Below, piece after piece: positions 7,963 to 40,677 of a stretch of 64,000 nucleotides of DNA. Positions within the stretch are counted from its first letter, which is position 1. Every line of letters begins with the position of its first letter. The stretch comes from an uncultured Verrucomicrobiae bacterium. GTDB taxonomy: Bacteria > Verrucomicrobiota > Verrucomicrobiia > Chthoniobacterales > UBA10450. Below the pieces are notes generated by a model. That model had not been told where the DNA came from. It saw nothing but the letters and a program-made list of their open reading frames with translations, and did no database searches. The DNA lies in contig CAVWPA010000003.1 in assembly GCA_963756875.1 (NCBI GenBank), positions 1,632,001 through 1,696,000 of the forward strand. Direction: 5' to 3'. A program made the position numbers and the translations under genes.

Positions 7963-8051
7963 TCGATGGAGGGATTAGGCCGAAAAGCGGGGAATGATCG
8001 CAGGAATATCTTTTCGCACAAGTCTTTTGTCGGTCGGGGATCGTTTAGGAA

Positions 8052-8630
8052 CTACCTCGCCGCTGGCGAGCTGTTCCTTGCGACCGTGCTCAGATCGCTA
8101 ATGCTGCCGTCCGCAAAGACGAGGAGATTCCCGTTGCCGTGGACATCGCCGACCTCCGCAAACCACGGCTGGCGTGGCCACCTGTGCGGGGTTATCGGCT
8201 TGTCATCGAAAGCGCTCGCGACGTAGTCGACCCGCACATTCTGCGGGTCTGACAGGTCCGGATTCCCCAGAAGATTCTGGATAGTTGGGCAAATCCATGT
8301 CTTTTGTGTCGGGCCAAAGGGAGCGAGCGCATTAATCCAGCGGCGCGCATAATCCTGCTCTCCAGAATCAGAATCCTCCTCGCCAATCTGCGGCCAGCTA
8401 CCGTTCTGCTGCACATAAAGATCCGCCGCCACGTACAGATTTCGCAGATTAGCCATGCATTGCACACGCTGTGCGCGCGCACGCAGCGTCGAGACGACAG
8501 GAAATAATAGCGTGGCCAGTATGCCGATAATGACGGCTACAATTAGAATCTCGAGTAACGTTACTCCTCTACCATTAGATTTTTCAAAGCGTCCCCCCCA
8601 AACACGCACGCCATTGAGCTTGGCTTTCAA
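8052..8630 (-). CDS. Prepilin-type N-terminal methylation protein with H-X9-DG C-terminal motif (DUF1559-like)
   Basis: RG|VTLLEILIVAVIIGILATLL, C..NLR.L, and HGNGNLLVFADG. Confidence 0.85.
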   Translation of the reverse strand: MKAKLNGVRVWGGRFEKSNGRGVTLLEILIVAVIIGILATLLFPVVSTLRARAQRVQCMANLRNLYVAADLYVQQNGSWPQIGEEDSDSGEQDYARRWINALAPFGPTQKTWICPTIQNLLGNPDLSDPQNVRVDYVASAFDDKPITPHRWPRQPWFAEVGDVHGNGNLLVFADGSISDLSTVARNSSPAAR

Positions 8631-9235
8631 GTAGTGCTGGAAGACTGCCGGAATCCGCGAACTTTATAGATGATCGGGCCACCGCTTTCTCCAGCAGGAT
8701 CAGGATCATGTCCATCGTTTCGAATATTTTTGTAAGTCAGGGAACCCCTACCAATAATCCTGCTTGTCCCAGATGAGCTCGATCGTGTTACGATGCTTGT
8801 CTTTCTGAACTTCCCGTTCGCCTCATAGTAGGATTGAATGGATTCGGAGCTTCCGGTGGAACTAGAACCTGAAGAGATAATTTGCTGGAATTGCGCATTA
8901 ATTACCCCGCTCAAGCGCCCACCATCAGGGTCAGCAGAAGCCTGAATCTGTCCGGAATAAAATATTCCGTTTCGAAACACAACGGCGTCGCCAATTCCGA
9001 GACCTGTTCGAGGAATTTTTAATGTGAAAAGGACAAGCGAGTCATCTGGAGGCAGCGTGACTGGTGGTGGGCCGGGGTCGACAACAACGACTAAGGGCAC
9101 AAGGACGCCGGCATATGTTCCGACAACCGCCACCTGTCCTCCGCCGGACCACGGGCCACCGCTGATGGCAAACGTTTGGGAGGCTGTGAAAACGAGACAC
9201 ATCAGGCAGCCGAGGAGGCTTTTCATGGCGTTCAC
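8627..9235 (-). CDS. Hypothetical secreted protein
   Basis: Signal peptide MKSLLGCLMCLVFTASQTFA; overlaps the prepilin gene by 4 bp. Confidence 0.7.
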   Translation of the reverse strand: MNAMKSLLGCLMCLVFTASQTFAISGGPWSGGGQVAVVGTYAGVLVPLVVVVDPGPPPVTLPPDDSLVLFTLKIPRTGLGIGDAVVFRNGIFYSGQIQASADPDGGRLSGVINAQFQQIISSGSSSTGSSESIQSYYEANGKFRKTSIVTRSSSSGTSRIIGRGSLTYKNIRNDGHDPDPAGESGGPIIYKVRGFRQSSSTT

Positions 9236-9366
9236 TTAAGAAAAATGCTTTGCGCGCGTCAATCCAAAACTTCTGAATCTCGGATCACCGCGGCCGACGT
9301 GCCCGCCGGCGAAAAGCCAAAAAGTAATCGAGGGCGGGCGCATCGCCTGCCGTCTCTTGGTTCGGA

Positions 9367-9435
9367 AAATTGTAGGGCAACCGCATCGGTTGCCGGGGTT
9401 TTGGTTGGCAAGCGGAGCGCTTGCCCTACAACGGC
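9367..9435. repeat. REP doublet, left flank of RAYT (69-bp exact direct repeat of 9966-10034)
   Basis: aaattgtagggcaaccgcatcggttgcc...ggcaagcggagcgcttgccctacaacggc; a further REP lies at about 9496-9520. Confidence 0.9.
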
Positions 9436-9530
9436 AACGGTACGATTGGCAGTGGGGAAATTGCGTGGCGACCGCGTCGATTGCCGTTTTTTCGTTGTAG
9501 GGCAGGCGCGCCGCCTGCCAATCTAAACAA

Positions 9531-9974
9531 ATGGGACATCCTCCCAGGATTCCTGTTTGGCTGCGCTGGGAACAATCGGTGATTTATTTCGTCACCATTT
9601 GTGTAGCGAATCGCAAACCCGTCCTCGCGAACGAAAACGCCTTCATCGCGTTCAAAAATGCTGTGGCAAAGCTGCATTATTGGACCGTCCTCGCCGCGAT
9701 CCTGATGCCGGATCATCTTCACGTCATCGCCGTGCCCACAGCAGATCGCGAGGCTAAAATCGGGAATTTCGCAGCCGGAATTAAGCGTTGGATGCGCCAG
9801 GAATTGAACGCCTCCTGGAAATGGCAACCGGGCTGTTTCGATCGCCTTTTGCGATCGAACGAATCGCTTCACGGTAAATGGTTGTATGTTGAAGAGAACC
9901 CGGTGCGCGCCGGTCTGGTGAAGCATTGGCAGGATTGGCCTTATCGTTACGAGTTTAACGATCCCAAATTGTAG
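9531..9974 (+). mobile_element. REP-associated tyrosine transposase (RAYT)
   Basis: YFVTIC, HUH motif MPDHLH, WQPGCFDRLLR, YVEENPVRAGLV; flanked by REPs. Confidence 0.92.
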
Positions 9975-10034
9975 GGCAACCGCATCGGTTGCCGGGGTTT
10001 TGGTTGGCAAGCGGAGCGCTTGCCCTACAACGGC
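9966..10034. repeat. REP doublet, right flank of RAYT
   Basis: Identical to 9367-9435; contains the RAYT stop codon. Confidence 0.9.
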
Positions 10035-14179: not shown

Positions 14180-17100
14180 ATGAATCGCAAACTCACAAGC
14201 CATGTCTCATGGAGTGCCATAATGTGCGCGTGCGCGATCGCAGCGCCTGCGCTGACATCGGTTGAAGGAGCGGCGTTGAAAGCAGCGCACGTCTCACGAG
14301 TGATTCAGGATGTAAAACTGCTCGCTCCTTCTGCGGCGCCCCGCCCCGCCGCGATCGACGATCCGGTGAAAGAAGGAACGGCTGTGCGGACCGGCATCCA
14401 GTCGCGCGCGGAGCTCACTTTCGCAGACCTGACCATCACGCGGCTTGGCGAAAACACGGTCTTCAATTTTGGAGCGAACGCCCGTGAGTTGGACCTGGCT
14501 ACTGGGTCGGTGCTTGTTCAGGTGCCATCAAAAGCACCGCCGGCCCGAATTACAACAGCGGCAGTGACGGCTGCCATCAGTGGTGGGACCGCCATGTTTG
14601 CGACAGGTCCTCCGATAAAATTCATGGTTTTGGAAGGAACCGGAACTTTTTATCCGAAAGGTCATCCGGAAGAAGCCATCACTCTGCACGGGGGAGAAAT
14701 GATGATGTTCACTCCTGACGGTCACATGGTTGGGCCGATGACATTCGATGTGAAAAAGGTCATGGAAACGTCGCACTTGATTATCGATTTTCCCGACCTC
14801 CCAAACCTGCCGTTGATTTTGGACGTGATGAATGGGCAAACATCAATTTCGATCGCGGGTCCGAGTCCCGCGCCCCAAAAGGACATCGTCGATCTGGTTG
14901 ATCAAACCAACAACGCGTCGTCATCGCCGCCGCCCGGGCCTCCACCATCGGGCACACCGGGCAAATTTGGGCCGCCATCGACGATTGGGTCACCGGTTCC
15001 GTATGTCATTACTTCGGGAACGCAGATTCAAACCGATCCGGTGATTACCACAAACGGCGTGACCAATTACGGGACGATTTATCAAGGCTCGGGGATCGAT
15101 GGTCCGTTTTCAGCCTGGGCGTTTGGTTCGACATCATCTTTTGACACGACCAGCGGATTCGATGGCCAGATCACCCATTCGGGCGCGGTCTTCAAGTTCG
15201 CCTCGCTTTCTCTGGCGGGCGATCCGATGATCGACACAACGAGCGGCGAAACGGGCCTTGGCCTGATCGGTGTGAACAGCGTCATTTCCGGTTCCGGCGG
15301 GATGCTGACCTTTCCCGGGATCGAGGGGTTGCTGATTGCAACAGAAGCCGGGTCGATCAATCTCGGATCGGGAATTTCGTTTAATGGCCCGACCGATTTG
15401 AATTTCTACGCACGCGGCTCCACCAGCGATCTCACGCTGGGCTCGGATGCGACGTCGTCGGGCAACATTCGCCTTTATGCCGGACGCGATATCCAGGTCA
15501 ACAGCGCCATAAGCACTCCGACTTTCACTGCATTTTCCGGCGGCGATTTCTTCGCCAACGCATCGGGGACGAACATCATGGCCGACAACATCGACGTCGA
15601 ATCTCTTTCGAACATCACCATCGATGCATCCAAGGTTCCCGATCCGGTGAGCGTGGGCGGCGCGATTATTTTCAACGCGGCGGACACGGTGAACCTCGCT
15701 CTATACGGCGGCGGCAATTTCGGGTGGGACTCGCTCAATATTCAGGGCACGACAGTGAACCTTACGAATCCGGCGCCGACGACGTTCAATTTCTCGAACT
15801 CCAGCAGCGTGACGGTGACCGCCGGCACAGGTGGGATTAACGCGTCGAACATCGAGTTTTTTGGAGACAATCTTACGCTCGATTCTACTGCAAACATCGA
15901 CATTTACTCCGCGACGACGCCGTTGGACATGAATAACAATCCGGCGATCTCCGGCTCGATCACCGCGAACGGGAATATCGATGCTGCGGGAGAGATTGAT
16001 ACCGGGATATTGCACGCGGACGGCAACATCACCGGTGGTGGCGCGCTGAAGGCGGGAGACATCAGCGCCAACGGCAACATCATGGCGGACAGCGACATTT
16101 TCGCCTACGGCGGCTCGATCACGGCGGATGGAGATATCATTTCGACCAGCGGCAGCATTGAGCTTCAGCAAAACCCGCCCGGCACGTTCGGTAACATTAC
16201 TGCCGGTGGAGATATTAGCGCGGCCGGCGGAATATTTACACCGGGCGACCCGGTGATAGTGATGGCGGACGGGTCGATCACAGCTCCGGGTGTGATTACC
16301 GGTACGCTTCAGGCCGGGACCGATATCACAATCGACAATTCGGGCGGCGGTTTTGGCTTCGGCATCGTGGCCAACCATGTCAGCGCCGGCGGCACGCTTT
16401 ACCTGATCAATTCGCCCACGATCTCACCCAACAACGGCGGCTCGGGCGGGAATGACGGAGAGACGCTCGACGACTTCAGCATGACGGTGGGATCGATTTC
16501 CAGCACGGGACCGACTTTTGCCGTCCTTTCGTCCAACGGCGGCGATGCGGATTCGAACTTTGTTGATTCGAATCCGGGCAACGGCGGCAATATCACGCTC
16601 ATGATTACGGCCGGCGGCCTCAACGTTGGCGAACCGCTCACCTATGGTGTGATCAGTTTGACGGATCTCGAGTCGATTCAGGCAAACGGAGGGGCCTACA
16701 ATGCGAGCGGTCCGTTCGGCGGTGGTAACGGCGGCACGATCAACATTACCGCTGCCGGCGACGTGACGATCGATTCTACGCAAGATGGTTCGCCGACAAT
16801 CTTCGCCAGCTCTGGCATTGTTTCCGACGATACGACTCAGTTCGCGGGTAATGGCGGCACGGTGAACATTACTTCCACCGGCGGCGCGGTCGCGGTCGAG
16901 GGCTCGATCGAGGTATCTTCAGAAGATTCTGCTCATCGACCCGAAGACCCGTTTGGAAGAGAAAGCGCCAGCGGCGGAACGATTGACCTGCAAAGCAACC
17001 TTACTACTGGCATCGGTATTACCGTGGGAGCGAATGGCTCACTGCTCTCCTACCTGAGTTTGGACGCCCTTAATGCGGATGGCGCGCCTGGCTCGATTAC

Positions 17101-19480
17101 ACTCTCCACCATGGGAGCCGACATCGTCGTGAACGGCACGGTGCGCGCTGATTTTGGCACAATTACCATCGATCAAGATGATCCGGTGGCGGCGACTCCC
17201 ACGATCACGCTCGACGGCGCCACATTGCAGGGAGCCAGGCTCAATATTAATGGAAGCGGCGATCTCACCATAGGGCCGAACTACAGCACCGCGATCAATG
17301 TTTACAGCGACAGCACGTGGAATGTGTCGCATGACATTACGATTAATGCTGCGAATACGAGCTTTGCGTATGCTTTCACGCTGAATGCCACGGCGGGCAA
17401 CGCGATTAATTTCACTGGCGGAAGTTCTGGCTCCCCTGCGACGCTCACGTTGCCGCTCTCAGGCGACACGACTTTCCAAGCCGGGACCGGAGGTATCAAC
17501 GCGCAATACGTCGATATCCAATTTGCTGGCGCGGCATTGAATCTTGTGTCGGGCGGCGACATTACCGCGAATTCCATCGCTTTTACTGATTACTATGCTC
17601 GTGGAAGCGTGAACGCCGTGGGCGCGCTGACGGTCACCAACGATCTCAACAGTGGCGATGTTAGCGCGGCAAGCATCGATGCCGGAGGCGACTCTTTAAC
17701 GGGTTCGCTAACGAGTAGTAGCACGATCAATATTGGTGGAAGAATGGGCTCCTTCGGCACGGTGACGGCGAATGGCGCCATAACCGCGGGCACGGTGGCT
17801 GTGCCGACGATTGTCGATCCCAACGGCGTTCTCACCGTCGGAAGTGGCGGTATTAAACCATTTGTCTTTAGCACCGATCCGAGTTTCCCCGCGCAGGGTG
17901 CTAAGGCACCGCATGTTTTCACTGTGGATTCGATTGTTTCGCCTAACGGAATTGATCTTAGTGGCAATCAATTTGGCGGTATCGACGGCTACTCTTCGGG
18001 CGGGATACTCACTTTGAACGTGAACTCAGCGACTTTCGATCCATCAAGCGGGATTGGCATTGTGAACTTTAACGGCGCAGACGCCGGCGCGACCGATTTC
18101 AGCGGAAATGTGTTTACAACAGTTGGTGGAGATGGCGGAACTTTCATTGCGAATGCCGCCGGGGATATCACAGTTACTTCGGATTCGCCCATTACGGCGA
18201 CGACAGGGGAGATCGACCCGAATCTTTCCAATGCAACCGACTCGGGGGCGGGCGGGACGGTCGAACTGAACTCTACAAACGGGACGGTGTCGGTCGATTC
18301 GAGCATCCAGGTTTCTTCAGCAGAGCCGACATCGACAGTTGCGCCGTTCCGATCGAGCTCAAGTGGCGGCAACATCAGCCTCACCAGCGGCAAGACATCC
18401 GGCGTTGCCATCAACCTCACGAGTTCCGCACAACTGCTCGCTCTGTTGAGCAACACGGCCGCCCTCAGTTCGGGAGGCAACATTACAATCGTGGCGACCA
18501 ATGCTGCAAACAACGGCACGAGCACGAGCAGCATCGACATCGACAACACGTACGGCCAGATCAGAGCCGATCGCGGCACGGTCGAGATTCGTCACGATGG
18601 CGATGGCGGCCTGATCAATCTCACCAACTCGAATATCAGCGCCGACATCGTAAAGATCGGCGCGCTTGGAAATGATGGAACGCTGACAATCGGCGGCGGC
18701 ACGATTTCGGCCGATTCGATGTTGAAGCTTTATGCGGGCAGCAGCAATGGTTCCATCGATTTTGTTTCGGACGTCACGCTGAACAGCTCAAGCACGGCGG
18801 CAATTATCGCTGCGAACACGGTAACCATTGAAAACGGCGTGACCGTCACAATCGTCGGACTGGCTGCAATGGTTTACACGAACAATGCCAATTATGCCCC
18901 GCTGGATGCGTTGGGAAATCCAGAAGGCGGAACCAACCTGACCAGTACGGGTCGATTCGGCGGCTCCGGCGCAATTACCAACTCTCTCCCAGCGCCGCTG
19001 TTTGATGATCCTCCTGGAAACTTGCCTATTACCCGCACCGCGAGTGCACCTGCCAATGCTCAGAATGTTTCCAGTGCGAAGGTCACATCATCGGGCGTTC
19101 GTGGTGGAGCTGGCGGGACCGGGCGATTGCAACCCGAAGGCCCCATTAGGCGGAGTGGAAGAAGTGGCGATCTTGTGGCCACCAACGCGAAGAGCGCGGG
19201 CACCGCGATCAATGTTGCCAACTCGGGACAGTTGCTTTCCATGCTCGACGAGGCTGCTCCCGGTCCTGGCGGCAAAATTACGATTGCGCCTTCAAAGAGC
19301 ACCAGGAATGGAGGGAATTCCGCTCGCAGCGGGGTCAGTCGTCGCGTGACGGCCGATGGCAACGCGGCGGACGCCCGGCGCATGCGCGATCGGCGGGTGA
19401 TTCAACCAACCACCAACACTTTCAGCGGCGCGGGGGACAATAACGCGCGGCGCCTCGCCAGCGCACCCGGACTCCATTAG
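14180..19480 (+). CDS. Secreted FecR-domain protein with very long Gly/Asn/Thr-rich beta-helix-like passenger (1766 aa)
   Basis: Signal peptide; FecR motif EGTAVRTGIQSRAELTFADLTITRLGENT; Pro linker; haemagglutinin-like ITA.GDI repeats. Confidence 0.85.
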   Translation: MNRKLTSHVSWSAIMCACAIAAPALTSVEGAALKAAHVSRVIQDVKLLAPSAAPRPAAIDDPVKEGTAVRTGIQSRAELTFADLTITRLGENTVFNFGANARELDLATGSVLVQVPSKAPPARITTAAVTAAISGGTAMFATGPPIKFMVLEGTGTFYPKGHPEEAITLHGGEMMMFTPDGHMVGPMTFDVKKVMETSHLIIDFPDLPNLPLILDVMNGQTSISIAGPSPAPQKDIVDLVDQTNNASSSPPPGPPPSGTPGKFGPPSTIGSPVPYVITSGTQIQTDPVITTNGVTNYGTIYQGSGIDGPFSAWAFGSTSSFDTTSGFDGQITHSGAVFKFASLSLAGDPMIDTTSGETGLGLIGVNSVISGSGGMLTFPGIEGLLIATEAGSINLGSGISFNGPTDLNFYARGSTSDLTLGSDATSSGNIRLYAGRDIQVNSAISTPTFTAFSGGDFFANASGTNIMADNIDVESLSNITIDASKVPDPVSVGGAIIFNAADTVNLALYGGGNFGWDSLNIQGTTVNLTNPAPTTFNFSNSSSVTVTAGTGGINASNIEFFGDNLTLDSTANIDIYSATTPLDMNNNPAISGSITANGNIDAAGEIDTGILHADGNITGGGALKAGDISANGNIMADSDIFAYGGSITADGDIISTSGSIELQQNPPGTFGNITAGGDISAAGGIFTPGDPVIVMADGSITAPGVITGTLQAGTDITIDNSGGGFGFGIVANHVSAGGTLYLINSPTISPNNGGSGGNDGETLDDFSMTVGSISSTGPTFAVLSSNGGDADSNFVDSNPGNGGNITLMITAGGLNVGEPLTYGVISLTDLESIQANGGAYNASGPFGGGNGGTINITAAGDVTIDSTQDGSPTIFASSGIVSDDTTQFAGNGGTVNITSTGGAVAVEGSIEVSSEDSAHRPEDPFGRESASGGTIDLQSNLTTGIGITVGANGSLLSYLSLDALNADGAPGSITLSTMGADIVVNGTVRADFGTITIDQDDPVAATPTITLDGATLQGARLNINGSGDLTIGPNYSTAINVYSDSTWNVSHDITINAANTSFAYAFTLNATAGNAINFTGGSSGSPATLTLPLSGDTTFQAGTGGINAQYVDIQFAGAALNLVSGGDITANSIAFTDYYARGSVNAVGALTVTNDLNSGDVSAASIDAGGDSLTGSLTSSSTINIGGRMGSFGTVTANGAITAGTVAVPTIVDPNGVLTVGSGGIKPFVFSTDPSFPAQGAKAPHVFTVDSIVSPNGIDLSGNQFGGIDGYSSGGILTLNVNSATFDPSSGIGIVNFNGADAGATDFSGNVFTTVGGDGGTFIANAAGDITVTSDSPITATTGEIDPNLSNATDSGAGGTVELNSTNGTVSVDSSIQVSSAEPTSTVAPFRSSSSGGNISLTSGKTSGVAINLTSSAQLLALLSNTAALSSGGNITIVATNAANNGTSTSSIDIDNTYGQIRADRGTVEIRHDGDGGLINLTNSNISADIVKIGALGNDGTLTIGGGTISADSMLKLYAGSSNGSIDFVSDVTLNSSSTAAIIAANTVTIENGVTVTIVGLAAMVYTNNANYAPLDALGNPEGGTNLTSTGRFGGSGAITNSLPAPLFDDPPGNLPITRTASAPANAQNVSSAKVTSSGVRGGAGGTGRLQPEGPIRRSGRSGDLVATNAKSAGTAINVANSGQLLSMLDEAAPGPGGKITIAPSKSTRNGGNSARSGVSRRVTADGNAADARRMRDRRVIQPTTNTFSGAGDNNARRLASAPGLH

Positions 19481-19643
19481 CTTCATTCTGCAAACCAGGC
19501 TCCATTGGGGCGCGCCTTGCGAGCCCAAACTCGGCGCAGGATGGCCACATCTGGCGGCTGAACGTTGTAAAAGCTTGACCTGCCCAAGGCAAGGCCTCAA
19601 AAACGGCGCTTGGAACGCCCTGGGATAGGGGTCTCAGGCAATT

Positions 19644-20525
19644 ATGAGTCGCAACCTTCATCTTGTCGTCCTGGTATCGCTCGCCGCGCTGCCTGCGAGC
19701 AGGTTGAACGCCGCTTCGTCCGTAGAAGCCCGTGTCACGCAAATTTCCAAAACCGTGCAGTTGCTGGCTCCGAAAACCGCCGCGCGTTCAGCATCTCTGA
19801 GCGACAATGTGAGAGAGGGAACCACCGTTCGGACGGTAGGCGACTCGAGCGTTGAGCTAACCTTTTTCGACGGAACGATTGTGCGGCTCGCGGCCAATAC
19901 CGCTTTTAGTTTTGAACGCGGCACACACGATTTGAATCTGGGCGCGGGCGCGGTGTTGGTTCAGGCCTCGGAAGGAGCGAGAGGTGCCAGGATTCACGCC
20001 GGCGACGCCGCAGCTGCAATTACAGGGACAACCGTCATGTGCGAGTATCACGCCGGGGTTTGTAAATTTCTGGTTCTTGAGGGCACTGGCCGATTCTATC
20101 GCCCGGGACATCTCGGCGATTCGGTCCTGGTTAGGCCCGGGCAAATGGTGATCGGCAAACCGAGCGATCCAGTGAGCGATCCGGTAGACTTCGATATCGG
20201 CCGGTTCGTAAGAACCAGCCGGTTGATTATTAATCATCGGCCGCTGCCCAGCGAGCAGTTGATCGCGGCCGAAACTCGGAAACAACAGCGCGAGAAATCC
20301 AAAAAGACTTTGATCGACACTAACCTGGTGATTTTCGGAGGCGGAACTCTGGTGTCGATTACAAAACCCACGCAGACGAATGGTGCTGGTGCGAAGCCGG
20401 GACCGAACGGAATTCCGGCCTCGACCGATCTCGGAAGCGTCCAAACGCCGCCTTCCTTATCGAATCCGGCATCAAATCCGAGTGGATTGAATGCGGTTGA
20501 TCAGGCAGCAGATAGCCGGCGGTAG
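19644..20525 (+). CDS. Secreted FecR-domain protein, no passenger
   Basis: Signal peptide; EGTTVRTVGDSSVELTFFDGTIVRLAANT. Confidence 0.85.
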   Translation: MSRNLHLVVLVSLAALPASRLNAASSVEARVTQISKTVQLLAPKTAARSASLSDNVREGTTVRTVGDSSVELTFFDGTIVRLAANTAFSFERGTHDLNLGAGAVLVQASEGARGARIHAGDAAAAITGTTVMCEYHAGVCKFLVLEGTGRFYRPGHLGDSVLVRPGQMVIGKPSDPVSDPVDFDIGRFVRTSRLIINHRPLPSEQLIAAETRKQQREKSKKTLIDTNLVIFGGGTLVSITKPTQTNGAGAKPGPNGIPASTDLGSVQTPPSLSNPASNPSGLNAVDQAADSRR

Positions 20526-20528
20526 AAT

Positions 20529-22562
20529 ATGAAATATCCTGGAACGAATGCCTTGACCGCTCTGTCCGTGGTTCTTGCTTTTCCGGCTATGGCGCCCACC
20601 GCGAGCGCCGTTCAATTTAGGGCTGCGCGCGTGACGCAAATAATCAAGGACGTGAAACTGCTTCCCAGGCAGACGAGGCCGCGGGCAGCGTCTGTGAACG
20701 ACGAAGTGAGCGCCGGCACTGCCGTGCGCACCGGAGTGGATTCCCGCACGGAGCTGACCTTCACCGATCTGACCATTACGCGCCTTGGCGCGAACACGAT
20801 TTTCAGCTTTAACGAAGGAACTCGCCGCATCGATCTTGGCGGCGGGGCCGTGCTCGTGCAGGTCCCGCGGGGTGAGGCTGAAATGAAGATCAGCACCGCG
20901 GCTGTTACAGCCGGCATTAGCGGCGGCACGGCTCTCTTCGAGTGGAACAAGGGGTTTCCGGCAAAACTGCTCCTCCTTGAAGGTATCGGCCGCTTTTATC
21001 CCACAGGCCACCCCGATCAAGCCGTAATCGTTCATGGCGGAGAAATGGTGATGATGACCATAAACGGGCAAATCACCCGGGCGACAAAATTCAATGCGGC
21101 CCTGGTTTATAAGACGGCGAAGCTGATCACGAGTTTTCCCAAGCTTCCGAACGCCGATTTGATCATGGCGGTGATCGACCAACAGCAGGCCGAAATGTCC
21201 GAAGGGCCTTCGAACCCGCCCCCGAGCAATCCCATTGATACGACCGACCAGGCGATCGTGGCAAATCCGGCATTGGCAGGGTCGACGAAATTCGGGCCGC
21301 CTTCGGCGATCAAATCGCCGAACCCGTACCTCATCACAAGTGGTACGATGATTAATACCGATCCCATGATTACTACGAATGGCGTAACCAATCTCGGGAA
21401 AATTTATCGCGGCGCCTCTTTAGACGGTCCGTTAGCCACCTGGCTTGGCAGCACACCATCGGCCTTCGACAGCGTCAAATTTTTTGACAGTACCAACGGC
21501 GGGTTTAATCCTAGTGGTAACTCCCTTCCACTCCCGGGTTTCCTGTTCGCGGGGCTGCAACTGGATGGAGACCCGGCGGTTTCCAACTCCAGCGGCTACC
21601 CACTTCTAGGGCTTGTCAGCCAAAATGGGATCACGTCTTCTCCATCGGGGACCGTTTTTACGTTCGGCGGCATGCAGCAAGTCGCTCTAGTTACTCTCAA
21701 TGGCTCGATCGATCTGTCCGGGATCAGCTTCGCCAATTTCGGCCAGCTTTATATCTATGCTCGCGGCACGGGCTCAAATCTCACGCTGGCCGCGCCAATT
21801 TCCATTGATAAAGTTCAGCTCAGGGCAGAAGGAGATATCCAGCTAAACTCTTCTGTCACGACGTTCGGCACCGTTCATGACAAACGCGGATTTAAGGCCC
21901 TGGCGGGCAACAATCTTGTAGTCGGCTCGACCGTCACCACGAACGGCGGGGGGATCACTCTCCAGTCTCTGGGCGGCATAACCGTCAGCAATAGCGGCCA
22001 ACTTTTGTCCTTGCTCGATGCCATGGGAAACGGTGGTCAAGTCGTGATCATCGCCAGCGGCAGCGACACGCCCATCAACGTCAGCGGAACGATTCAGGCT
22101 GATCAGGGCGAGGTGGATATCCGTCAGACCGGCGTCGCGGGGCAAACGACTCTGAACAATGCGATGATCCACGGCGACGTTGTTAAAATATCGGCGCTTG
22201 GCGCGAACGGAGTGCTCAACATCGGCAGCGGTAACATGATTAACGCCGATTCGGTGATTAAACTCTACGCCCCGGGAAGCAACGGCACTCTCAACTTTAT
22301 GTCGAGCGTGACACTGAGCAGCCCGTCGAATATTCTTGCCGCCAACAGGATCACTATCGCCCCAACCGCTGTTGTTACGATCAACAGTGCGAGCAAGGCT
22401 GACATTTACACGAATATGCCGGACTACAATTTCATGCCTCAGCCCGGTTACAACGGCCCCCCTCCCAATGCGTCCAACGGCAGCTTCGACGGCGTGGGCG
22501 CGAACGATCCGCAACCGCTCGCAAATGCGCCGCCGCTCGGTGGTCCGGGGATGGGGCCATGA
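20529..22562 (+). CDS. Secreted FecR-domain protein with short beta-helix-like passenger (677 aa)
   Basis: Signal peptide ending ASA; GTAVRTGVDSRTELTFTDLTITRLGANT; shares N- and C-cap modules with its paralogues. Confidence 0.85.
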   Translation: MKYPGTNALTALSVVLAFPAMAPTASAVQFRAARVTQIIKDVKLLPRQTRPRAASVNDEVSAGTAVRTGVDSRTELTFTDLTITRLGANTIFSFNEGTRRIDLGGGAVLVQVPRGEAEMKISTAAVTAGISGGTALFEWNKGFPAKLLLLEGIGRFYPTGHPDQAVIVHGGEMVMMTINGQITRATKFNAALVYKTAKLITSFPKLPNADLIMAVIDQQQAEMSEGPSNPPPSNPIDTTDQAIVANPALAGSTKFGPPSAIKSPNPYLITSGTMINTDPMITTNGVTNLGKIYRGASLDGPLATWLGSTPSAFDSVKFFDSTNGGFNPSGNSLPLPGFLFAGLQLDGDPAVSNSSGYPLLGLVSQNGITSSPSGTVFTFGGMQQVALVTLNGSIDLSGISFANFGQLYIYARGTGSNLTLAAPISIDKVQLRAEGDIQLNSSVTTFGTVHDKRGFKALAGNNLVVGSTVTTNGGGITLQSLGGITVSNSGQLLSLLDAMGNGGQVVIIASGSDTPINVSGTIQADQGEVDIRQTGVAGQTTLNNAMIHGDVVKISALGANGVLNIGSGNMINADSVIKLYAPGSNGTLNFMSSVTLSSPSNILAANRITIAPTAVVTINSASKADIYTNMPDYNFMPQPGYNGPPPNASNGSFDGVGANDPQPLANAPPLGGPGMGP

Positions 22563-22595
22563 ACTTATTCTGGAAATGAAGCGAACATTCCCTTT

Positions 22596-23567
22596 ATGAT
22601 ATTAGACGTGACGCATCGGCCCCACTTTCATCGGAAGGCGTTTTTAACGGCTTTGTGCCTGCTGCTTTCTTTCACCCTGGCAAAATCCAGCTTGGCGCAG
22701 ACTGTTCAGGCGGACCAGGCCGAATTGGCGCGCAGCCAGACGGCGCTTGCTCCAAATGTTTCACCGAGTGGCATTGTGAACGGCCGTGCCGTATCGAGCC
22801 CTAACGATTCCGACCTCGGCGAGCAGCAGATTCTCAAGCGGGTGGAGGAGTATGAGCCTTTCACGGCATCAGTCGCGGTGCCGATTTATTACACCTCCAA
22901 TGTGGCGTTGACGAATAGCGGCGAGCGTAGCGATCTCATTACCGCGCCAGTGGGTTCTGTAGTCTACCAGCCGCGCATCACCAAGACGCTCTACGGGCTC
23001 GTCGATGTAAGGCAGCAATTGTTTTACTACAATCAGTATCCCGCGTTCGATTTTGGGAGCATGGATGTCGAAGCGGGTCTGATTTATTTGCTGCCGCAGT
23101 TTCACAACCTCATCTTGCGCGCCGAGTACGACTTCAATCGTCTGACTTCGTCCGACCGCGTGTTGGATGAATTTTACCAGAATCATTCCGTTATCGTGAA
23201 CGCCGAGGTCCCATTCCGCATATCTCGGGCGGCGCAAGTCTCGTTAGGCGGCGATGCCAACATCAGCGTGGCAGCGGATCATCAGGCGCCAAGAAGAAAC
23301 GATTACGACGGTTACGCCAGTTGCTCGGTGTTGCTCACCCGCTCGCTTTCCATTGGTGGCGCCGCTCGCGTGGTTGTGCGTAACTATCACCAGAATAATC
23401 GCACGGACGTAAGCGAAATCGTTTCGGCGACTGCCAGTCTGCGACTGACAAACTGGTGGACTGTGAGCGCGATCGGCACTTTTGCGCGCAGCGATTCAAA
23501 TCACGATGTCTTCGATTACAGCGTGGTGAATGCGGGCGGCGCACTCGCGTTGACAGCGAAGTTCTAG
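22596..23567 (+). CDS. Outer-membrane beta-barrel protein
   Basis: Signal peptide ending SLA; amphipathic strands rich in Tyr/Phe; C-terminal ALALTAKF beta-signal. Confidence 0.75.
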   Translation: MILDVTHRPHFHRKAFLTALCLLLSFTLAKSSLAQTVQADQAELARSQTALAPNVSPSGIVNGRAVSSPNDSDLGEQQILKRVEEYEPFTASVAVPIYYTSNVALTNSGERSDLITAPVGSVVYQPRITKTLYGLVDVRQQLFYYNQYPAFDFGSMDVEAGLIYLLPQFHNLILRAEYDFNRLTSSDRVLDEFYQNHSVIVNAEVPFRISRAAQVSLGGDANISVAADHQAPRRNDYDGYASCSVLLTRSLSIGGAARVVVRNYHQNNRTDVSEIVSATASLRLTNWWTVSAIGTFARSDSNHDVFDYSVVNAGGALALTAKF

Positions 23568-23572
23568 CCGAT

Positions 23573-26500
23573 ATGCGGCGGGCACGTGGTCATCATACCC
23601 AGACCGGTTTTGCATTGTCGTGCGGGGTGTGGCTGTTGTTGTCCCTGATTGTGCCTGCTTCATCGGCAATGGCCGCGGGGCTGAAACAGGCGACTGTCAC
23701 GCGAATTATTCAAGACGTGCAATTGCTTCCGAGCGAGGCATCGCCCAGGCCGGCAGTCGTAAACGACATTGTGCGTCAGAAAACGGCGGTGCGAACCGGC
23801 GCGGACTCCCGCACTGAGCTTACATTTACCGACCGGACACTCACGCGACTCGGAGCAAATACGCTTTTTAGCTTCAACGAGGGCACGCGCAGCATCGATC
23901 TCGGGGGCGGCGCTATGCTTTTAAGCGTGCCGAAAGGCGCCGCCACGACAAGGATCATGACCGCCGGGGTAAGCGCTGGAATCAGCGGAGGCACGGCATT
24001 GGGCGAGTATCATCGCGATGCGTACAGCAAGTTTATCGTTCTGGAAGGCGTTGCGCGGATCTACCTGAGACATCGCCTGGGTGAATCGCTGCTTCTTCAT
24101 GCCGGGCAGATGATTATTCTGAAGCCGGATGCGAAGCATCTGCCTGACCCGGTGGATATCGATCTGGGCCGGTTGATGAAAACATGTCTGCTCATTGTGG
24201 GGTTTCCGCCGTTGCACAACGAACCGTTGATCGCGGACGCAATTCAGCAGCAGAACCAGGAGAAAGCCAAAGGAACGCTTTACGACACCAACATGGTCAT
24301 CGTCGGCAATGGGACACTGGTTTCATTGGTCGATCCGACGTTTCTCGATCTCCTCGACCAGGCAATCAATAATGGGCCCGGCCCGGGCGGCGGCGGTGTG
24401 GTGATTCCGGAATTTGGTCCGCTCAATACAATTACCTCGCCGAATCCATACGTCATCACATCCGGCACGAAAATCAGAACCGCGCCGACGATTACCACCG
24501 GAGGCATCACTCAGGGTGGGAAAATTTATCGTGGAAATATGATCGATGGGTTCGCCTCCGACTACTTCTTCGGATCGAGCTCCAACTTTGACTTCGCGAG
24601 TGAATTCAATGGAGTCGGGGAAGGCGCAAACGGCGATCTCCCGATGGCAACGTTCAGATTTACGTCGCTGCAAATCACAGGGAATCCGACGATCAAAGTG
24701 CCGAGTGGCGGCGCGACCAATCTTACTTTGATCAGCGAAGGCAATATCACATCGGGTGCGCCCGGTGGGACACTCACGCTCAATGGCATGAATGCGGTCT
24801 TACTTGCCACGCAGAACGGATCCATCAATCTGGGACCGCAGCTGACCTTCTCGAATTTTAACTTCCTGTCGCTCTACGCCCGCGGCGCGGGTTCGAACGT
24901 GACGATCGCCTCGCCTGTTTTGAATCTGTCAGGCGTATCGTTGACCGCGGAAGGTTCTGTCACAGTAAACGGCAATGAGACTGTGCAGAGCTTTCAGGCT
25001 TTTACCGGTGTTGATTTTCTCGGCGGTACCGGGCATGTCATTGCCGCCAGCGACATTGGCATCATGACAGGCAACAATCTCGATTTCACGACCGCGAATT
25101 TCGCAGTGACTACAGGCACACCGAGCGTCTTCTTGCTAGCTACTGGAAATGCGAATCTCGATATTCGAAACGATCAAAGCATATTTGCAAATGCCAGTTT
25201 CATTTTCGTCGATGGCGTCGCCGAGAACTATACCGCCGATGCGGGCGGAACGACGTTGATGTTTAATCCTACGGCGCAGGTGCAGTTCTTTGCTGAAGCA
25301 GGTGGTATTCAGGCTCTGGAAACCACGTTTCTTCAAACCAGCAACATGATGCAGTTTACCTCCACCGGTGACATCGATGTTAACTCGATCGTCGGTGCCG
25401 ATATCATTCGTTCCACCGCCGGCAGCATCCACAGCTCGGAGCCGTTGTCAGCCAATACGATCGCGGCCGCAGCAGCCATCACTTCTGCAGCCGACCTGAC
25501 CGCTGTTAACTCCATCACGGCAGGGACGATAATCAGCGTCACAGATAATTTGATTTCGCCGAGCGTTCAGGCCGGCGGGAACATCACTGCGGGCCTCGTC
25601 GAAGTTCAAAACATTAATCCCAACAACGCTCTACCGAGCAATACGACCCTGACAGCCGGGGGCGGCGGTATCATTCCGTTTCCCGGAGCGGGCGGTTCGG
25701 GTTTACAGCACACTTTCAATCTGACGACCATTGTCTCGCCACAAGGAATCGATTTTACTGGAAGCCATTTCGGGCCTGGGGCCAACGGCGGCGTGCTGAC
25801 GATTAATGCGCAAACGCAGGACTTTTCCTCGGCGGGTATCAACGGCGCGAACTTCAATGGCGCGGACGCGCCGACCATCGCGAACCCGGCCGGCAGCGGC
25901 GGCAGCCTGACAGTAAACACGGCCAACGCTCTTACGGTGAATGGCGTTGATATCACCGCTACCACGGGGATCATCGATACCAATAGCACGCCCTCTGGCG
26001 CGGGAGGGAGCGTCAGCTTGAATTCACAGAGCGGACAGGTGAGCCTCACCAATACTCGTATTCAGGTCTCATCCAGCGACCCGATGGGAACAGCGAACCG
26101 CCGTTCCAGTGGAAATGGCGGCAATATCAACATCTCCAGCGCCGCCACAACCGGCACGGCCATTCTCATCGACAATAGCGCGCAATTGTTGTCCCTGCTC
26201 GAAAATACCGCGCCGGGTCCGTCCGGATTGATCACGATTTCCGCCAGCGGCGCGAACAGTAGCATTCAAGCCGGTGGACAGATTGAAGCGGACAGCGGCA
26301 GTCCCACCACTGCTGCGCACGGCATCGACATTCGTCACACGGGCGCCGCCGGCCAGATCACCCTGACGAACGTGAACGCACACGCCGACATCATTAAGGT
26401 GGCGGCGCTGGGCAACAACGGCACGCTCACCATTAGTGGCGGAATGTTGAGTGCCGACACAACCTTAAAACTTTATGCGCCCGGCAGTAACGGGCAGATT

Positions 26501-26764
26501 GTTTTTGTGGCTGATTGCACGATCGCAGGAGGTAATGCCAATATCCTCGCTGCAAACAGTGTGACGATAAACACTGGCGTTACCGTCACGACGCAGGGAC
26601 ACGCCGCCGATGTGTATGTCAACCAGACTAGCGGCATCCCAAACGCCAATTACACTGGTTTCGGCGGAAACGCCTCGACAACCGGTACCTTTGCCGGGCT
26701 TGGCGCCACCAATCCGCAAATGCTTAGCGCGGCGCCGGTCCTTGGGCCACCAGGCGGTCCATGA
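23573..26764 (+). CDS. Secreted FecR-domain protein with beta-helix-like passenger (about 1063 aa)
   Basis: ATG at 23573 precedes a signal peptide ending AMA; TAVRTGADSRTELTFTDRTLTRLGANT; shared caps. Confidence 0.85.
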   Translation: MRRARGHHTQTGFALSCGVWLLLSLIVPASSAMAAGLKQATVTRIIQDVQLLPSEASPRPAVVNDIVRQKTAVRTGADSRTELTFTDRTLTRLGANTLFSFNEGTRSIDLGGGAMLLSVPKGAATTRIMTAGVSAGISGGTALGEYHRDAYSKFIVLEGVARIYLRHRLGESLLLHAGQMIILKPDAKHLPDPVDIDLGRLMKTCLLIVGFPPLHNEPLIADAIQQQNQEKAKGTLYDTNMVIVGNGTLVSLVDPTFLDLLDQAINNGPGPGGGGVVIPEFGPLNTITSPNPYVITSGTKIRTAPTITTGGITQGGKIYRGNMIDGFASDYFFGSSSNFDFASEFNGVGEGANGDLPMATFRFTSLQITGNPTIKVPSGGATNLTLISEGNITSGAPGGTLTLNGMNAVLLATQNGSINLGPQLTFSNFNFLSLYARGAGSNVTIASPVLNLSGVSLTAEGSVTVNGNETVQSFQAFTGVDFLGGTGHVIAASDIGIMTGNNLDFTTANFAVTTGTPSVFLLATGNANLDIRNDQSIFANASFIFVDGVAENYTADAGGTTLMFNPTAQVQFFAEAGGIQALETTFLQTSNMMQFTSTGDIDVNSIVGADIIRSTAGSIHSSEPLSANTIAAAAAITSAADLTAVNSITAGTIISVTDNLISPSVQAGGNITAGLVEVQNINPNNALPSNTTLTAGGGGIIPFPGAGGSGLQHTFNLTTIVSPQGIDFTGSHFGPGANGGVLTINAQTQDFSSAGINGANFNGADAPTIANPAGSGGSLTVNTANALTVNGVDITATTGIIDTNSTPSGAGGSVSLNSQSGQVSLTNTRIQVSSSDPMGTANRRSSGNGGNINISSAATTGTAILIDNSAQLLSLLENTAPGPSGLITISASGANSSIQAGGQIEADSGSPTTAAHGIDIRHTGAAGQITLTNVNAHADIIKVAALGNNGTLTISGGMLSADTTLKLYAPGSNGQIVFVADCTIAGGNANILAANSVTINTGVTVTTQGHAADVYVNQTSGIPNANYTGFGGNASTTGTFAGLGATNPQMLSAAPVLGPPGGP

Positions 26765-27597
26765 ATCGAGTATCGTATCGACAAGAAATAATTATCATGA
26801 AGAAACTGCTTTCACATCGAATAACTCCCATCGCGATTGCGTTCGCCTTTGCTGCTGCGATTTCGGTCGCCACTTTTGTTTTTGCGGCGGAAAAAAAAGA
26901 AGCCCGCGTCACAGAGGTAATCCGCGAAGTGCGCTTGCTTACGCCACGCGGCGGACCGCGCCCGGCTGCCGTGAATGAGAGCCTCCACGAGGGAACCGCC
27001 GTGCGCACCGGCAGGGATTCCCGCGCCGAGCTCACTTTTTCCGATCAAACCCTTGCCCGCCTTGGCGAGAACACTATTTTCAGTTTGGCAGGGGGATCCC
27101 GAACTTACAATCTGGGTGGCGGAGCTATCCTGATGTCCGCGCCGAACGGTACCGGCGCCGTCAGAATTGCTTCCCCGGTGGCGACGGCCGCCGTAACAGG
27201 TTTTACGGTCATGTTTGAGGAGCACAAAAATGGCTGGAGCAAATTCATCGTTTTACATGGACAAGGCAGAGTCTCGTTCAAAGGAATTCCAGGCCGCCCT
27301 TGCCGGTTGCACACCGGCCAGATGATCGTCTGGCCTCCGCATCCCGTCAGATGTCCGGACGTGCTGAATATCGATCTCTCGAAATTGTTGCGGGGAAACC
27401 TGGTCAAAGGCTTTAGGCGGCCGTTACCGGAGCTTGCTCTTATTTTTGGCCGATATACAAAACCAGCAGACTTCGCCGCCGCCGGGTGGTTTTGTCGATC
27501 CGACAAATCAGGATGCGCTCGATCTGAACGCCAACGTGATTCCACCATCTCCGCCGCCGAGACCGCCGCATGGGGAGTGAGGCCCCCTAGGGAGTAG
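26761..27597 (+). CDS. Secreted FecR-domain protein, no passenger; probable +1 frameshift at about 27445 (corrected stop about 27580)
   Basis: EGTAVRTGRDSRAELTFSDQTLARLGENT. The alternative frame gives LADIQNQQTSPPPGGFVDPTNQD, resembling the paralogue linkers. Confidence 0.8.
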   Translation: MNRVSYRQEIIIMKKLLSHRITPIAIAFAFAAAISVATFVFAAEKKEARVTEVIREVRLLTPRGGPRPAAVNESLHEGTAVRTGRDSRAELTFSDQTLARLGENTIFSLAGGSRTYNLGGGAILMSAPNGTGAVRIASPVATAAVTGFTVMFEEHKNGWSKFIVLHGQGRVSFKGIPGRPCRLHTGQMIVWPPHPVRCPDVLNIDLSKLLRGNLVKGFRRPLPELALIFGRYTKPADFAAAGWFCRSDKSGCARSERQRDSTISAAETAAWGVRPPRE

Positions 27598-37218: not shown

Positions 37219-37257
37219 GGGAGCGGCCATGCTCGCGTGGCCGCTCCTTCTTTTTTT
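37219..37257 (+). terminator. Rho-independent terminator
   Basis: ggagcggcca-loop-tggccgctcc followed by ttcttttttt. Confidence 0.8.
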
Positions 37258-37395
37258 GCCGAATTGCAATCCGGGGTTTCAGCCCATTTTCCAGCGGGAA
37301 AGGCCGGGAGCCGCGGCGCGTGTGCTCCGATTGACCCCGGGCTTCTCGAAACGCCGTCATTGCGCGGAACGCGTTGTGCGGCAAAGGTTACCCGC

Positions 37396-40300: not shown

Positions 40301-40677
40301 GCGAGCCCGCCCGCCCGTTGAGCGAGCGGACATTGAAACGCTCCGCCTTGCGCGATGTTGCAGGGATGATGCGATCGTTCCAGTACGTCGCCTACAGTGC
40401 CCTTTGGCAGCCGACGATGCGCACGGAGGATGTCCCGTTTCTCGAACGATGGGCCGATCTCTGGTATCGGCAAATCAGCAGCATCTTCCTGCAGAGTTAC
40501 TTGAAAACGACCGCCGGAGCGGTGTTCATCCCACAAAACAGCGAAGATCTGCAGATCCTTCTGGAAGCTTATCTGCTCGATAAGGCGGTTTACGAAATTG
40601 GCTACGAATTAAACAATCGGCCCGATTGGGTCGTCATCCCGGTTCGTGGTATCAAACACATCTTAAAACTGGCGTAG
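37396..40677 (+). CDS. treS: Trehalose synthase TreS fused to maltokinase (Pep2/Mak)
   Basis: WYKDAIIYE, SPLRDDGYDI, GLRLDA, FLRNHDELTLEMV; C-terminal EQSNSS, HGDYHLGQV, DFEGEP. Confidence 0.95.
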   Translation: MPAGSESGSDPLWYKDAIIYELHVKTFHDSDGDGMGDFRGLIEKLDYLQELGITAIWLLPFYPSPLRDDGYDIADYFNVNPNYGTLEDFRAFLTAAHGRGLRVITELVINHTSDQNPWFQKSRRAPAGSKEREFYVWSDTPEKYPDARIIFKDFETSNWAWDPLAKAYYWHRFYSHQPDLNFDNPAVHEAVQKVLDFWLSMGVDGLRLDAIPYLYEREGTNCENLPETHAFLKKLRAHVDKKFPGRMLLAEANQWPEDAVLYFGNGDESHMNFHFPLMPRMFMSLQMEDRFPIMDILDQTPPIPDNCQWAMFLRNHDELTLEMVTDEERDYMWRVYANDPHARINLGIRRRLAPLVANNRRKIELLNTMLLSLPGAPIIYYGDEIGMGDNIYLGDRNGCRTPMQWSPDRNAGFSKANPQQLHLPIIIDSEYHYEAINVENQQKNLSSLLWWMRRIIAMRKNFKSFSRGSLEFLYPENPRILAFLRRYENETMIVVVNLSRFSQSTDLNLARYAGCRLMEVFSQNYFPRIKKTPYPIMLGPHTCYWFAVRSQPAVGRAAQKKHVPTIEAEPKLEALLANEVCATLERKILPAYIQSCRWFGSKARGLRQVHVAERCPISAETGAAQIWFLQTAYLDGPVETYAFPVQITAGDAARAIMQRAPGAIIARFSGSEETVLHDALWDSSFRAQLFRAIARGENLKGQFGVLNGKPGSALSEDGAAQIPSSQVLRAEQSNSSMLFENKYFLKLYRKLEDGMNPDVEITRFLTERANFPNVPTFQGALEYRRAKSQPTVVCLMQGAVTAEADAWTLTLDAVGRYYERVLGRKADLQNQVAPLGALLDELIGGIYPEKASLLGQRTGELHRALASVEDDRAFAPEPFNAMSQRSAYQNMRALLRRNFDLLQKKISDLPETFRNEAKQVLASENDIHQWEKRLLNRKTNAAKIRTHGDYHLGQVLYTGKDFIILDFEGEPARPLSERTLKRSALRDVAGMMRSFQYVAYSALWQPTMRTEDVPFLERWADLWYRQISSIFLQSYLKTTAGAVFIPQNSEDLQILLEAYLLDKAVYEIGYELNNRPDWVVIPVRGIKHILKLA

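Follow-up and report, generated by a model that had tools for sequence, protein, structure and literature searches.

Introduction

CHASE2 is a common sensor domain and, to our knowledge, barely anything is known about the way in which it receives its signals. The best-studied case is the NsrA-CyaK system of S. meliloti. A report on this species describes CHASE2 cyclases that respond to plant uL2 via the outer-membrane barrel NsrA (PMC13001267). Another source, concerned with Campylobacterota, describes the clustering of genes for a CHASE2 cyclase, a FecR-domain protein of the outer membrane and a TPR protein (PMC9239204), and further exported FecR proteins beside CHASE2 sensors appear in two other papers (PMC5192318, PMC5498481). 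Here we analyze a cluster of six genes, g1 to g6, in a stretch of 64,000 nucleotides (the window) from an uncultured Verrucomicrobiae bacterium of the order Chthoniobacterales (contig CAVWPA010000003.1, positions 1,632,001 to 1,696,000). The central gene g4 encodes a putative small outer-membrane barrel and the other five encode presumably exported proteins with a FecR-type head, three of which continue into a long β-helical part. Our comparisons show that the barrel gene is conserved as a unit with a FecR-headed gene and that this unit adjoins CHASE2 sensor genes in many related loci, and they suggest that the cluster in the window is an expanded offshoot of it.

The gene on pSymB that overlaps the start of cyaK, which we take to be nsrA although its record carries only the name 'FecR domain-containing protein', encodes a FecR and TPR protein of 1197 amino acids. 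Its head aligns to the head of the family studied here (hhalign 96.3%, E 1.7e-9), and in both cases an exported FecR-type domain is tied to an outer-membrane protein, with a CHASE2 gene adjoining in 19 of 42 relatives of our locus. In contrast, when its C-terminal part was compared with the g4 barrel, hhalign yielded a value of only 0.2%. Head and barrel are separate polypeptides here, joined by a predicted peptide docking, and the barrel is small, with 12 strands and no TPR. The tie between FecR domain and barrel recurs as a conserved pair (38/42 loci) and as a predicted contact, but the window cluster has no adjoining CHASE2 gene and contains five FecR genes, three of them with β-helices. 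The original prediction counted a match with a system described before among the findings that would refute it; the arrangement of CHASE2, FecR and outer-membrane proteins partly provides one, from which the window cluster differs in the respects just given. We file the cluster as a variant of this poorly understood arrangement.

Other known systems resemble the locus in single features. The FecA-FecR and PupB-PupR pairs (PDB 6OVK, 6OVM) share the FecR fold and a barrel whose N-terminal extension binds a periplasmic FecR domain, a contact that is predicted in our case. Unlike the locus, they have an anti-sigma domain, a transmembrane helix, a FecR_C/STN-like subdomain, an extracytoplasmic function (ECF) sigma factor and a 22-stranded TonB-dependent transducer, and g4 has only a short peptide as its extension where they have an STN domain. 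Two-partner secretion (TPS) systems (HMW1, EtpA, HxuA) are similar in the helix fold modeled for g3 and in the position of a gene for a big exported Gly/Asn/Thr-rich protein beside a barrel gene; they differ in having a TPS domain where the present proteins have a folded FecR head, and a 16-stranded Omp85 barrel with two POTRA domains in place of 12 strands without POTRA. Autotransporters and inverse autotransporters (EstA, NalP, Hbp, EspP, intimin/invasin) likewise have a barrel of 12 strands (Z 16.7-20.3) whose loops are short and whose first strand is preceded by an N-terminal segment, and the order of periplasmic domain, barrel, linker and C-terminal passenger in type Ve systems would be the one of our proposed topology. 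In contrast to them, barrel and passenger are encoded by separate genes here, and neither sequence similarity of g4 to a solved barrel nor a Pfam Autotransporter match was found. FapF has a similar barrel fold (Z 17.4), but amyloid-type substrates are missing here. Slam / type 11 secretion also places a small dedicated barrel beside putative surface cargo, but its PF04575 domain, periplasmic TPR domain, 14 strands and lipoprotein cargo are not seen in the present cluster. Since each of the TPS, autotransporter, Slam and anti-sigma families has defining features that are not found here, the cluster falls outside all four. In the literature outside subscription journals, we found no description of a FecR-headed β-helix protein or of a FecR protein paired with a BBP2-type barrel, and a paper on T11SS cargo (PMC12282271) gave no match either.

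Conservation of the gene pair

The occurrence of the pair was surveyed in sampled genomes of Chthoniobacterales (n=151) and in genomes sampled across Verrucomicrobiota. The barrel was found in 68 of the 151 genomes of the order, including 15/15 genomes of the family to which the window belongs, and outside the order only three genomes of the phylum-wide sample gave strong matches. A survey of gene neighborhoods, as called for in the original prediction, revealed that in 37 of 41 distinct non-self loci the barrel gene is followed on the same strand by a FecR-head open reading frame (ORF) whose start is less than 600 bp away; with locus L073 included, this holds for 38 of 42. The exceptions come from two genera: in L007 and L010 (compare L035), a FecR-helix gene lies directly upstream of the barrel gene, and in L017 and L018 (identical to L043 and L041) no FecR gene occurs within 10 kb. 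The barrel tree and the partner tree contain matching groups. Barrel and FecR-headed gene appear, as part of the best explanation, to be an old, co-inherited two-gene unit of Chthoniobacterales and of a few other Verrucomicrobiota. FecR-only partners often end in tails of the PPKPPK type.

A 1075-aa 'fusion' frame in genome G138 was rejected as an artefact, namely a stop-free frame opposite a CHASE2 cyclase gene. At this locus (L073, G138:C15, 2753-5950, minus strand), the stop-free frame opposite the CHASE2-cyclase gene comprises 1065 aa and the true barrel gene starts inside it; the case is a warning on the lengths of open frames in GC-rich genomes.

Predicted docking of the FecR head on the barrel

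Modeling of the barrel together with a FecR domain had also been suggested at the outset, and it resulted in a predicted docking. Residues 35-323 of g4 and the head and linker of g5 (residues 35-345), the one head that was run, were submitted to complex prediction with our own alignments. The interaction prediction score from aligned errors (ipSAE) was 0.76, 0.75 and 0.84 (median 0.76), compared to 0.00 for the best of three controls. The ipSAE mark used is attained by 116 of 157 solved complexes and by 2 of 215 mismatched pairs, rates that are approximate for predictions from own alignments. The runs share at least 22% of their contacts, and the predicted local distance difference test score (pLDDT) of the partner was at least 65. 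On the g4 side, the predicted interface consists of residues 71-86 (DSDLGEQQILKRVEEY; expected error below 1.1 Å) and residue 246; by the strand order of the model, residue 246 lies in a periplasmic turn. On the g5 side, residues 194-207 and 227-250 are involved. In the model of g3 alone, the corresponding region of the head (residues 186-252) has low confidence, and the contact region of the head may fold only on binding. A profile search against PDB sequences detected no solved chain resembling g4 and, as no solved structure is similar to either chain by sequence, the docking score is unlikely to stem from structures already known to the model. The prediction supports docking of the FecR head on the N-terminal peptide of the barrel, which is the most conserved non-strand stretch of the family (consensus SPNDxDLGEQxILKR). 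Among 49 sequences, G75 is invariant, and P69, D71, D73, Q77 and L80 are conserved in at least 90%.

Association with CHASE2 sensor genes

Outside the window's family, the pair usually adjoins a CHASE2 sensor gene, typically in divergent orientation. With a CHASE2 profile of our own, such a gene was detected in 19 of the 42 distinct related loci, which is a lower bound because most loci carry merely 1.5-kb flanks. The adjoining gene encodes a CHASE2-cyclase in L046, L047, L048, L050 and L073, and a CHASE2-histidine kinase in L049. The CHASE2-linked partners are mostly FecR-only proteins with Pro-rich tails, and helix-bearing partners stand beside CHASE2 in L046 and L055. At the level of genomes, CHASE2 is present in 67 of 68 barrel-positive and in 33 of 83 barrel-negative members of the order, and in one genus barrel and CHASE2 coincide in the same six of 15 genomes. 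Considering that CHASE2 adjoins the pair in 19/42 loci, the core pair belongs to the known CHASE2 signaling arrangement, and its role is probably that of a surface-sensing or display device, not of an iron regulator.

The barrel tree unites the main loci of the window's family in a single clade that lies within CHASE2-linked barrels, and the window cluster is an expanded offshoot unlinked from the CHASE2 gene. The genome to which the window belongs (2.69 Mb) is 87.6% complete. It contains one CHASE2-cyclase, located between pheST and murC about 450 kb away and with no adjoining barrel or FecR gene, and no FecR proteins beyond the six head-bearing ones were found in it as partner for this cyclase.

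The barrel protein g4

The original prediction of a 323-aa barrel protein ending in Phe and lacking an evident POTRA region agrees with the AlphaFold2 model of g4, built from a 49-sequence alignment: a 12-stranded barrel is formed by residues 89-322 (pLDDT 79.5, predicted template modeling score 0.71), about 55 residues lie outside the barrel, and the C-terminus reads ...TAKF. The best structural matches are 12-stranded autotransporter translocators, namely EstA (Z 20.3, root-mean-square deviation (rmsd) 3.5 over 236 aligned residues), AaaA (19.7), NalP (18.8) and Hbp (17.7). Further matches are a COG4313 channel (Z 19.9), FapF (17.4), KdgM (17.2) and NanC (16.7), and Foldseek agrees with this result.

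By sequence, BBP2_2 (PF10082) is matched weakly by 37 of 49 g4 relatives (best E 1.5e-7) and several database relatives bear a precomputed PF10082 label, but g4 itself gave no match at E <=1; g4 may be a divergent BBP2_2 relative. Of the barrel families suggested for a Pfam check at the outset, DUF560/SlipAM (PF04575) was matched by 0/49 relatives at E <=1. No Pfam autotransporter or intimin barrel family was found in the six proteins of the cluster or in the 49 relatives. An Atlas cluster mixing SlipAM and BBP2_2 (score 0.97, rank 23) is regarded as a lead only. In sequence databases, g4 has 1279 relatives with names no more informative than 'Chthoniobacterales bacterium', and a locus search with the g4 protein alone returned 3 loci, all from metagenome-assembled genomes named 'Chthoniobacterales bacterium'.

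FecR-type heads

The claim that five proteins of the cluster combine a signal peptide with a FecR domain holds: Pfam FecR (PF04773, cut-off 24 bits) is matched above cut-off by g1, g2, g3, g5 and g6 (scores in Table 1), with domain matches beginning at residue 61-81, and for the signal peptides we infer cleavable sequences on all six proteins. All six N-termini start with a basic n-region, followed by a hydrophobic window of 12 residues (Kyte-Doolittle mean 2.1-2.6) and then by an AxA-like site, and a Kyte-Doolittle scan found no transmembrane-like window past residue 60 in any of them. The five heads are paralogous, with 41-51% identity across 149-215 residues. Within the window's family, heads fall into four orthogroups (g5 type, g2 type, g1/g3 type and g6 type), and a single partner is typical of other families. 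The g6 type is an orthogroup of its own and always constitutes the last gene in clusters of the window's family.

Genome-wide, six FecR matches were obtained, five of them in this cluster. The sixth head belongs to a 329-aa paralogue located alone among housekeeping genes (L069, 6054-7043, minus strand, corresponding to G000:C3 at about 1767 kb). This protein has a possible lipobox-like site (VFAGC) and a Pro/Gly-rich, strongly basic tail, unlike the cluster members.

The head of g3 (residues 32-176) resembles the periplasmic domains of PupR and of a Bacteroidales anti-sigma factor (Foldseek E 9e-6 to 8e-5), and residues 61-189 of the predicted model superimpose on the PupR periplasmic domain with Z 15 and rmsd 2.4 over 127 aligned residues. 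Together with the PF04773 matches and an ECF sigma gene in the window, this fold raises the question whether the proteins are canonical FecR anti-sigma factors with a remote sigma factor and TonB-dependent transducer. The ECF sigma gene (55142-55753, minus strand; Sigma70_r2, r4_2, ECF) is the nearest one, but it lies 27.5 kb from the cluster on the opposite strand, and neither a sigma factor nor a TonB receptor was found by Pfam among the neighbors of the cluster or among those scanned in eleven of the 20-kb related loci. None of the five FecR proteins has a cytoplasmic anti-sigma domain, a transmembrane helix before the FecR domain or a FecR_C subdomain, and an alignment of 39 homologues places the start of the conserved head about 5 residues behind the signal-peptide site. 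FecR_C (PF16344) and STN (PF07660) had no match in the incomplete genome, with controls positive in 4 and 5 of 14 genomes, respectively. As far as sequence can tell, this reading is already refuted, in line with the initial view that the proteins are not canonical anti-sigma factors, and we consider it barely credible. The FecR-type anti-sigma class was accordingly rejected for the cluster. Two small ORFs that follow the ECF sigma gene with a 14-bp overlap (54643-55155 and 54082-54636, both on the minus strand) match no Pfam family and could encode its anti-sigma partner.

In NCBIfam, only sub-threshold matches were obtained, to Leptospira Lsa19, Lsa33 and LipL45, to the LapA retention module and to the PEP-CTERM outer-membrane protein TIGR03016. 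The LapA and PEP-CTERM leads were dropped, as the tails contain no recognizable PEP-CTERM or other sorting motif; g3 and g5 end with ...APPLGGPGxGP.

Beta-helical passengers

As first noticed from the translated ORFs, three proteins have long Gly/Asn/Thr/Ile-rich tails. Their composition was confirmed (rich in G, S, T, A, N and I, with G 14-15%, N 8-9%, T 8-12% and I 7-8%), and the tail of g3 was modeled as a confident right-handed β-helix at residues 255-660 (pLDDT of the model 81). The closest folds to residues 266-627 are TpsA secretion domains, namely HMW1 (Z 27.1, rmsd 2.3, 275 aligned residues), EtpA (25.5 and 23.9) and HxuA (21.9); the autotransporter Vag8 matched more weakly (Z 20.6). 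The likeness to TpsA is confined to the fold: consistent with the earlier statement that the passengers lack a recognizable TPS domain, PF05860 had no Pfam match at E <=0.1 in the cluster proteins, and solved TpsA proteins gave no profile match. In the whole genome, neither the TPS domain nor ShlB (PF03865, TpsB) was matched, but these tests are weak, with controls positive in 0/14 and 1/14 genomes, respectively, and the genome being incomplete.

The proteins g1, g3 and g5 have a C-terminal module of about 210 residues in common, which was matched with E 2.1e-98 in g1 (residues 1391-1616) and with E 1.5e-107 in g5. A profile of helix and C-terminal module retrieved 689 representatives at E <=1e-3 among 1.84 billion proteins. 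Among the best 150 of these matches, 66 have a FecR head at residues 1-49 and the other 84 appear N-terminally truncated; in 42 head-less proteins of at least 600 aa, no TPS, autotransporter or other export family was found (E <=1e-4). Since the remaining matches are truncated or lack export families, the helix module appears to exist only behind a FecR head. The linker between head and helix is short in g5, at about 15 residues, and in orthologues it extends to over 100 residues made up of near-perfect PT, PTA or PTPS repeats; this variation is found in the partner genes of L012/L037, L006, L014, L015 and L046 (alignment columns 400-520). The 865 database homologues of g3 all have names that say no more than 'FecR', and a g1 orthologue of 1819 aa is present in genome G101. 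ESM Atlas scores for the helix part were below 0.8 and are treated as leads only.

Discussion

The explanation that accounts best for the whole of these observations, and to which we give nearly an even chance, is an outer-membrane-anchored complex that arose as an offshoot of a CHASE2 triad and would display its helices. The conserved periplasmic peptide of g4 would dock the FecR-type heads of all five neighbors. In most other families, the pair would serve a CHASE2 triad like NsrA-CyaK as its envelope arm, with the difference that this arm consists of two polypeptides. Duplication of the unit and its uncoupling from CHASE2 would have taken place in the window's family, and the FecR genes would have grown to five in the cluster and six in the genome, three of them bearing a TpsA-like β-helix on a Pro/Gly-rich linker. 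By analogy to autotransporters and inverse autotransporters, the heads may remain in the periplasm on the barrel while the linker threads the barrel and the helix is kept outside the cell, where it would act as adhesin or sensor arm. The FecR-only paralogues might compete for, or regulate, the one docking peptide, and occupancy or strain may be passed on to the lone, unlinked CHASE2 cyclase of the genome. A more specific version of this scheme, a split inverse-autotransporter-like device for adhesion and signaling in which a ligand or pull on the external helix would act through the linker in the barrel and the periplasmic head on the CHASE2 cyclase, so that contact with a surface would be translated into a cyclic-nucleotide signal, with FecR-only paralogues as competitors that set the gain, is in our view distinctly unlikely.

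Several observations weigh against the favored explanation. Many relatives pair the barrel solely with a FecR-only protein that ends in a Pro-rich tail, and in five genomes of this kind no β-helix homologue occurs at all, so that the core unit evidently works without a passenger. Export of the helix through the barrel is proposed by analogy, and residues 25-65 of g4, the part of the model that would show whether the pore is plugged, have a pLDDT below 50. Periplasmic β-helices of similar fold also match g3 (AlgG Z 18.1, NosD Z 18.0). The second contact stretch of g5 (TLYDTNMVIVGNGTLV) is present in g2 as well but gapped in g1, g3 and g6, and the five heads therefore need not bind alike. No CHASE2 gene was detected within 1.5 kb at any of the 14 main loci of the window's family, nor within 10 kb at the 10 loci viewed that far, and the co-occurrence counts for genomes overstate the case because related genomes are not independent. 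Moreover, six genomes of the window's family hold a second, divergent copy of the barrel beside a CHASE2 gene (e.g. L067); the expanded cluster may therefore have left signaling altogether.

This last point leads to a system for export and surface display without any signaling, in which the head would serve for targeting or retention, the barrel as translocator and the FecR-only proteins as adaptors or plugs. It would be the natural role for a barrel whose closest folds are autotransporter translocators and FapF, for a TpsA-like helix and for a predicted contact between head and barrel, and it agrees with the failure to find TpsB or TPS domains by the weak genome searches, with the lack of CHASE2 near the main clusters of the family and with the separate CHASE2-linked copies, as expected of functionally diverged paralogous systems. 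However, as judged from 19/42 loci and the barrel tree, a place beside CHASE2 sensors is both the ancestral and the most widespread setting for the pair, many pairs have no passenger, and translocation is proposed by analogy; we consider an export system of this kind rather unlikely, though deserving of serious weight. The earlier reading of FecR as a targeting domain served by a dedicated barrel thus fares unevenly: the conserved unit, the predicted docking and the TpsA-like fold speak for it, whereas the FecR-only partners and the CHASE2 adjacency speak against export as its sole function.

Alternatively, the whole assembly may reside in the periplasm, with the barrel as anchor or sensor pore and the FecR-headed proteins and their helices suspended on Pro-rich tethers beneath the outer membrane, where they would form a scaffold or an array for ligand binding and feed CHASE2 or another partner. 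The docking site itself, composed of the N-terminal peptide and turn residue 246, is predicted to be periplasmic, and in the cyaK neighbor of S. meliloti the FecR domain is N-terminal to TPR and barrel parts in one chain and hence periplasmic. FecR-only partners carry nothing to export, and β-helices are known from the periplasm (AlgG, NosD), but secreted TpsA proteins account for all of the top four fold matches to the helix and exceed AlgG, the best match from the periplasm, by 3.8-9 Z units. Lengths of 1000-2200 aa together with PT linkers that can exceed 100 residues are atypical of periplasmic proteins, and the closest folds to the barrel are protein translocators. An arrangement that is periplasmic throughout therefore seems unlikely to us.

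The family represents a simple, split version of the CHASE2 arrangement with a concrete predicted interface, formed by a 16-19-residue peptide on a small barrel and a FecR head. It suggests that docking of FecR domains on barrel extensions is not confined to iron signaling, from which it is known. With its helix-bearing members, the family would provide the first FecR-headed, TpsA-like β-helix proteins, and passage of the helices via a separate 12-stranded barrel, if true, would constitute a new route of surface display. The bacteria of the family are abundant and mostly uncultured, and the presence of the cluster in 15/15 sampled genomes of this small-genome family of soil Chthoniobacterales indicates that it likely matters for contact with the environment.

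Gene calls and genomic surroundings

The six ORFs had been described as co-oriented and tightly coupled, and both their coordinates (Table 1) and all five intergenic distances (163, 3, 33, 5 and -4 bp) were reproduced. For g5, which occupies the syntenic partner position directly downstream of the barrel gene, the frame is open from GTG 23456, and ATG 23573 was chosen since it yields a signal peptide. For g6, ATG 26761 overlaps the stop of g5, and an alternative ATG at 26797 would result in 266 aa. By Pfam and neighbors, the cluster is flanked upstream by coaE, rho and rnd and downstream by genes for a metallo-β-lactamase (MBL) hydrolase, a TPR-LysM protein and moeB/thiF, housekeeping genes that bear out the observation that no sigma factor or TonB-dependent receptor is adjacent. 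Neither the promoter scan (12 vs 7.1 +/- 2.4 in shuffled sequences) nor the terminator scan (21 vs 17.1 +/- 4.8) gave hits in excess. A search of sequencing runs returned one DNA run with the genome (share 0.07) and no RNA run.

Table 1. Genes of the cluster and the predicted docking peptide, in window coordinates; bit scores refer to PF04773
Feature	Position	Strand	Length	Description	FecR score
g1	14180..19480	+	1766 aa	Putative signal peptide, FecR-type head (~35-240), Pro-rich linker, long internally duplicated β-helix (predicted), C-terminal module (1391-1616), basic tail	34.5 bits (residues 69-153)
g2	19644..20525	+	293 aa	Putative signal peptide, FecR-type head, Pro-rich tail (FecR-only)	41.9 bits
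g3	20529..22562	+	677 aa	Putative signal peptide, FecR-type head, linker, predicted TpsA-like β-helix, conserved C-terminal module	34.6 bits
g4	22596..23567	+	323 aa	Putative signal peptide, periplasmic N-terminal extension, predicted 12-stranded outer-membrane barrel, terminal Phe	
g4 docking peptide	22797..22853	+	residues 68-86	Predicted FecR-head docking site	
g5	23573..26764	+	1063 aa	Putative signal peptide, FecR-type head, short Gly/Pro linker, predicted β-helix, conserved C-terminal module	36.6 bits
g6	26761..27597	+	278 aa	Putative signal peptide, FecR-type head, FecR-only; encoded at the end of the cluster	33.0 bits

Other parts of the window contain further genes of possible interest. 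At 1195-3825 on the plus strand, the gene for a TPR protein of 485 aa precedes three short ORFs that differ in frame (2591-2947, 2911-3216 and 3277-3825). A partial Secretin domain (PF00263, positions 48-148 of the 169 in the profile) is contained in the last of them, and frameshifts or assembly errors may have broken a secretin gene here. A run of small ORFs on the minus strand upstream of the cluster (5243-10010) resembles a pilus or type-II-secretion-like set, including an N-terminal methylation (pseudopilin) motif in the ORF at 8052-8630 and chitobiase C-terminal and Fn3-associated domains in the ORF at 5243-5764. Downstream of the cluster, a plus-strand gene (37237-40677) encodes a 1146-aa fusion of an alpha-amylase-family domain, a maltokinase N-cap and an APH kinase, which resembles TreS-Mak of the trehalose-to-glucan pathway.

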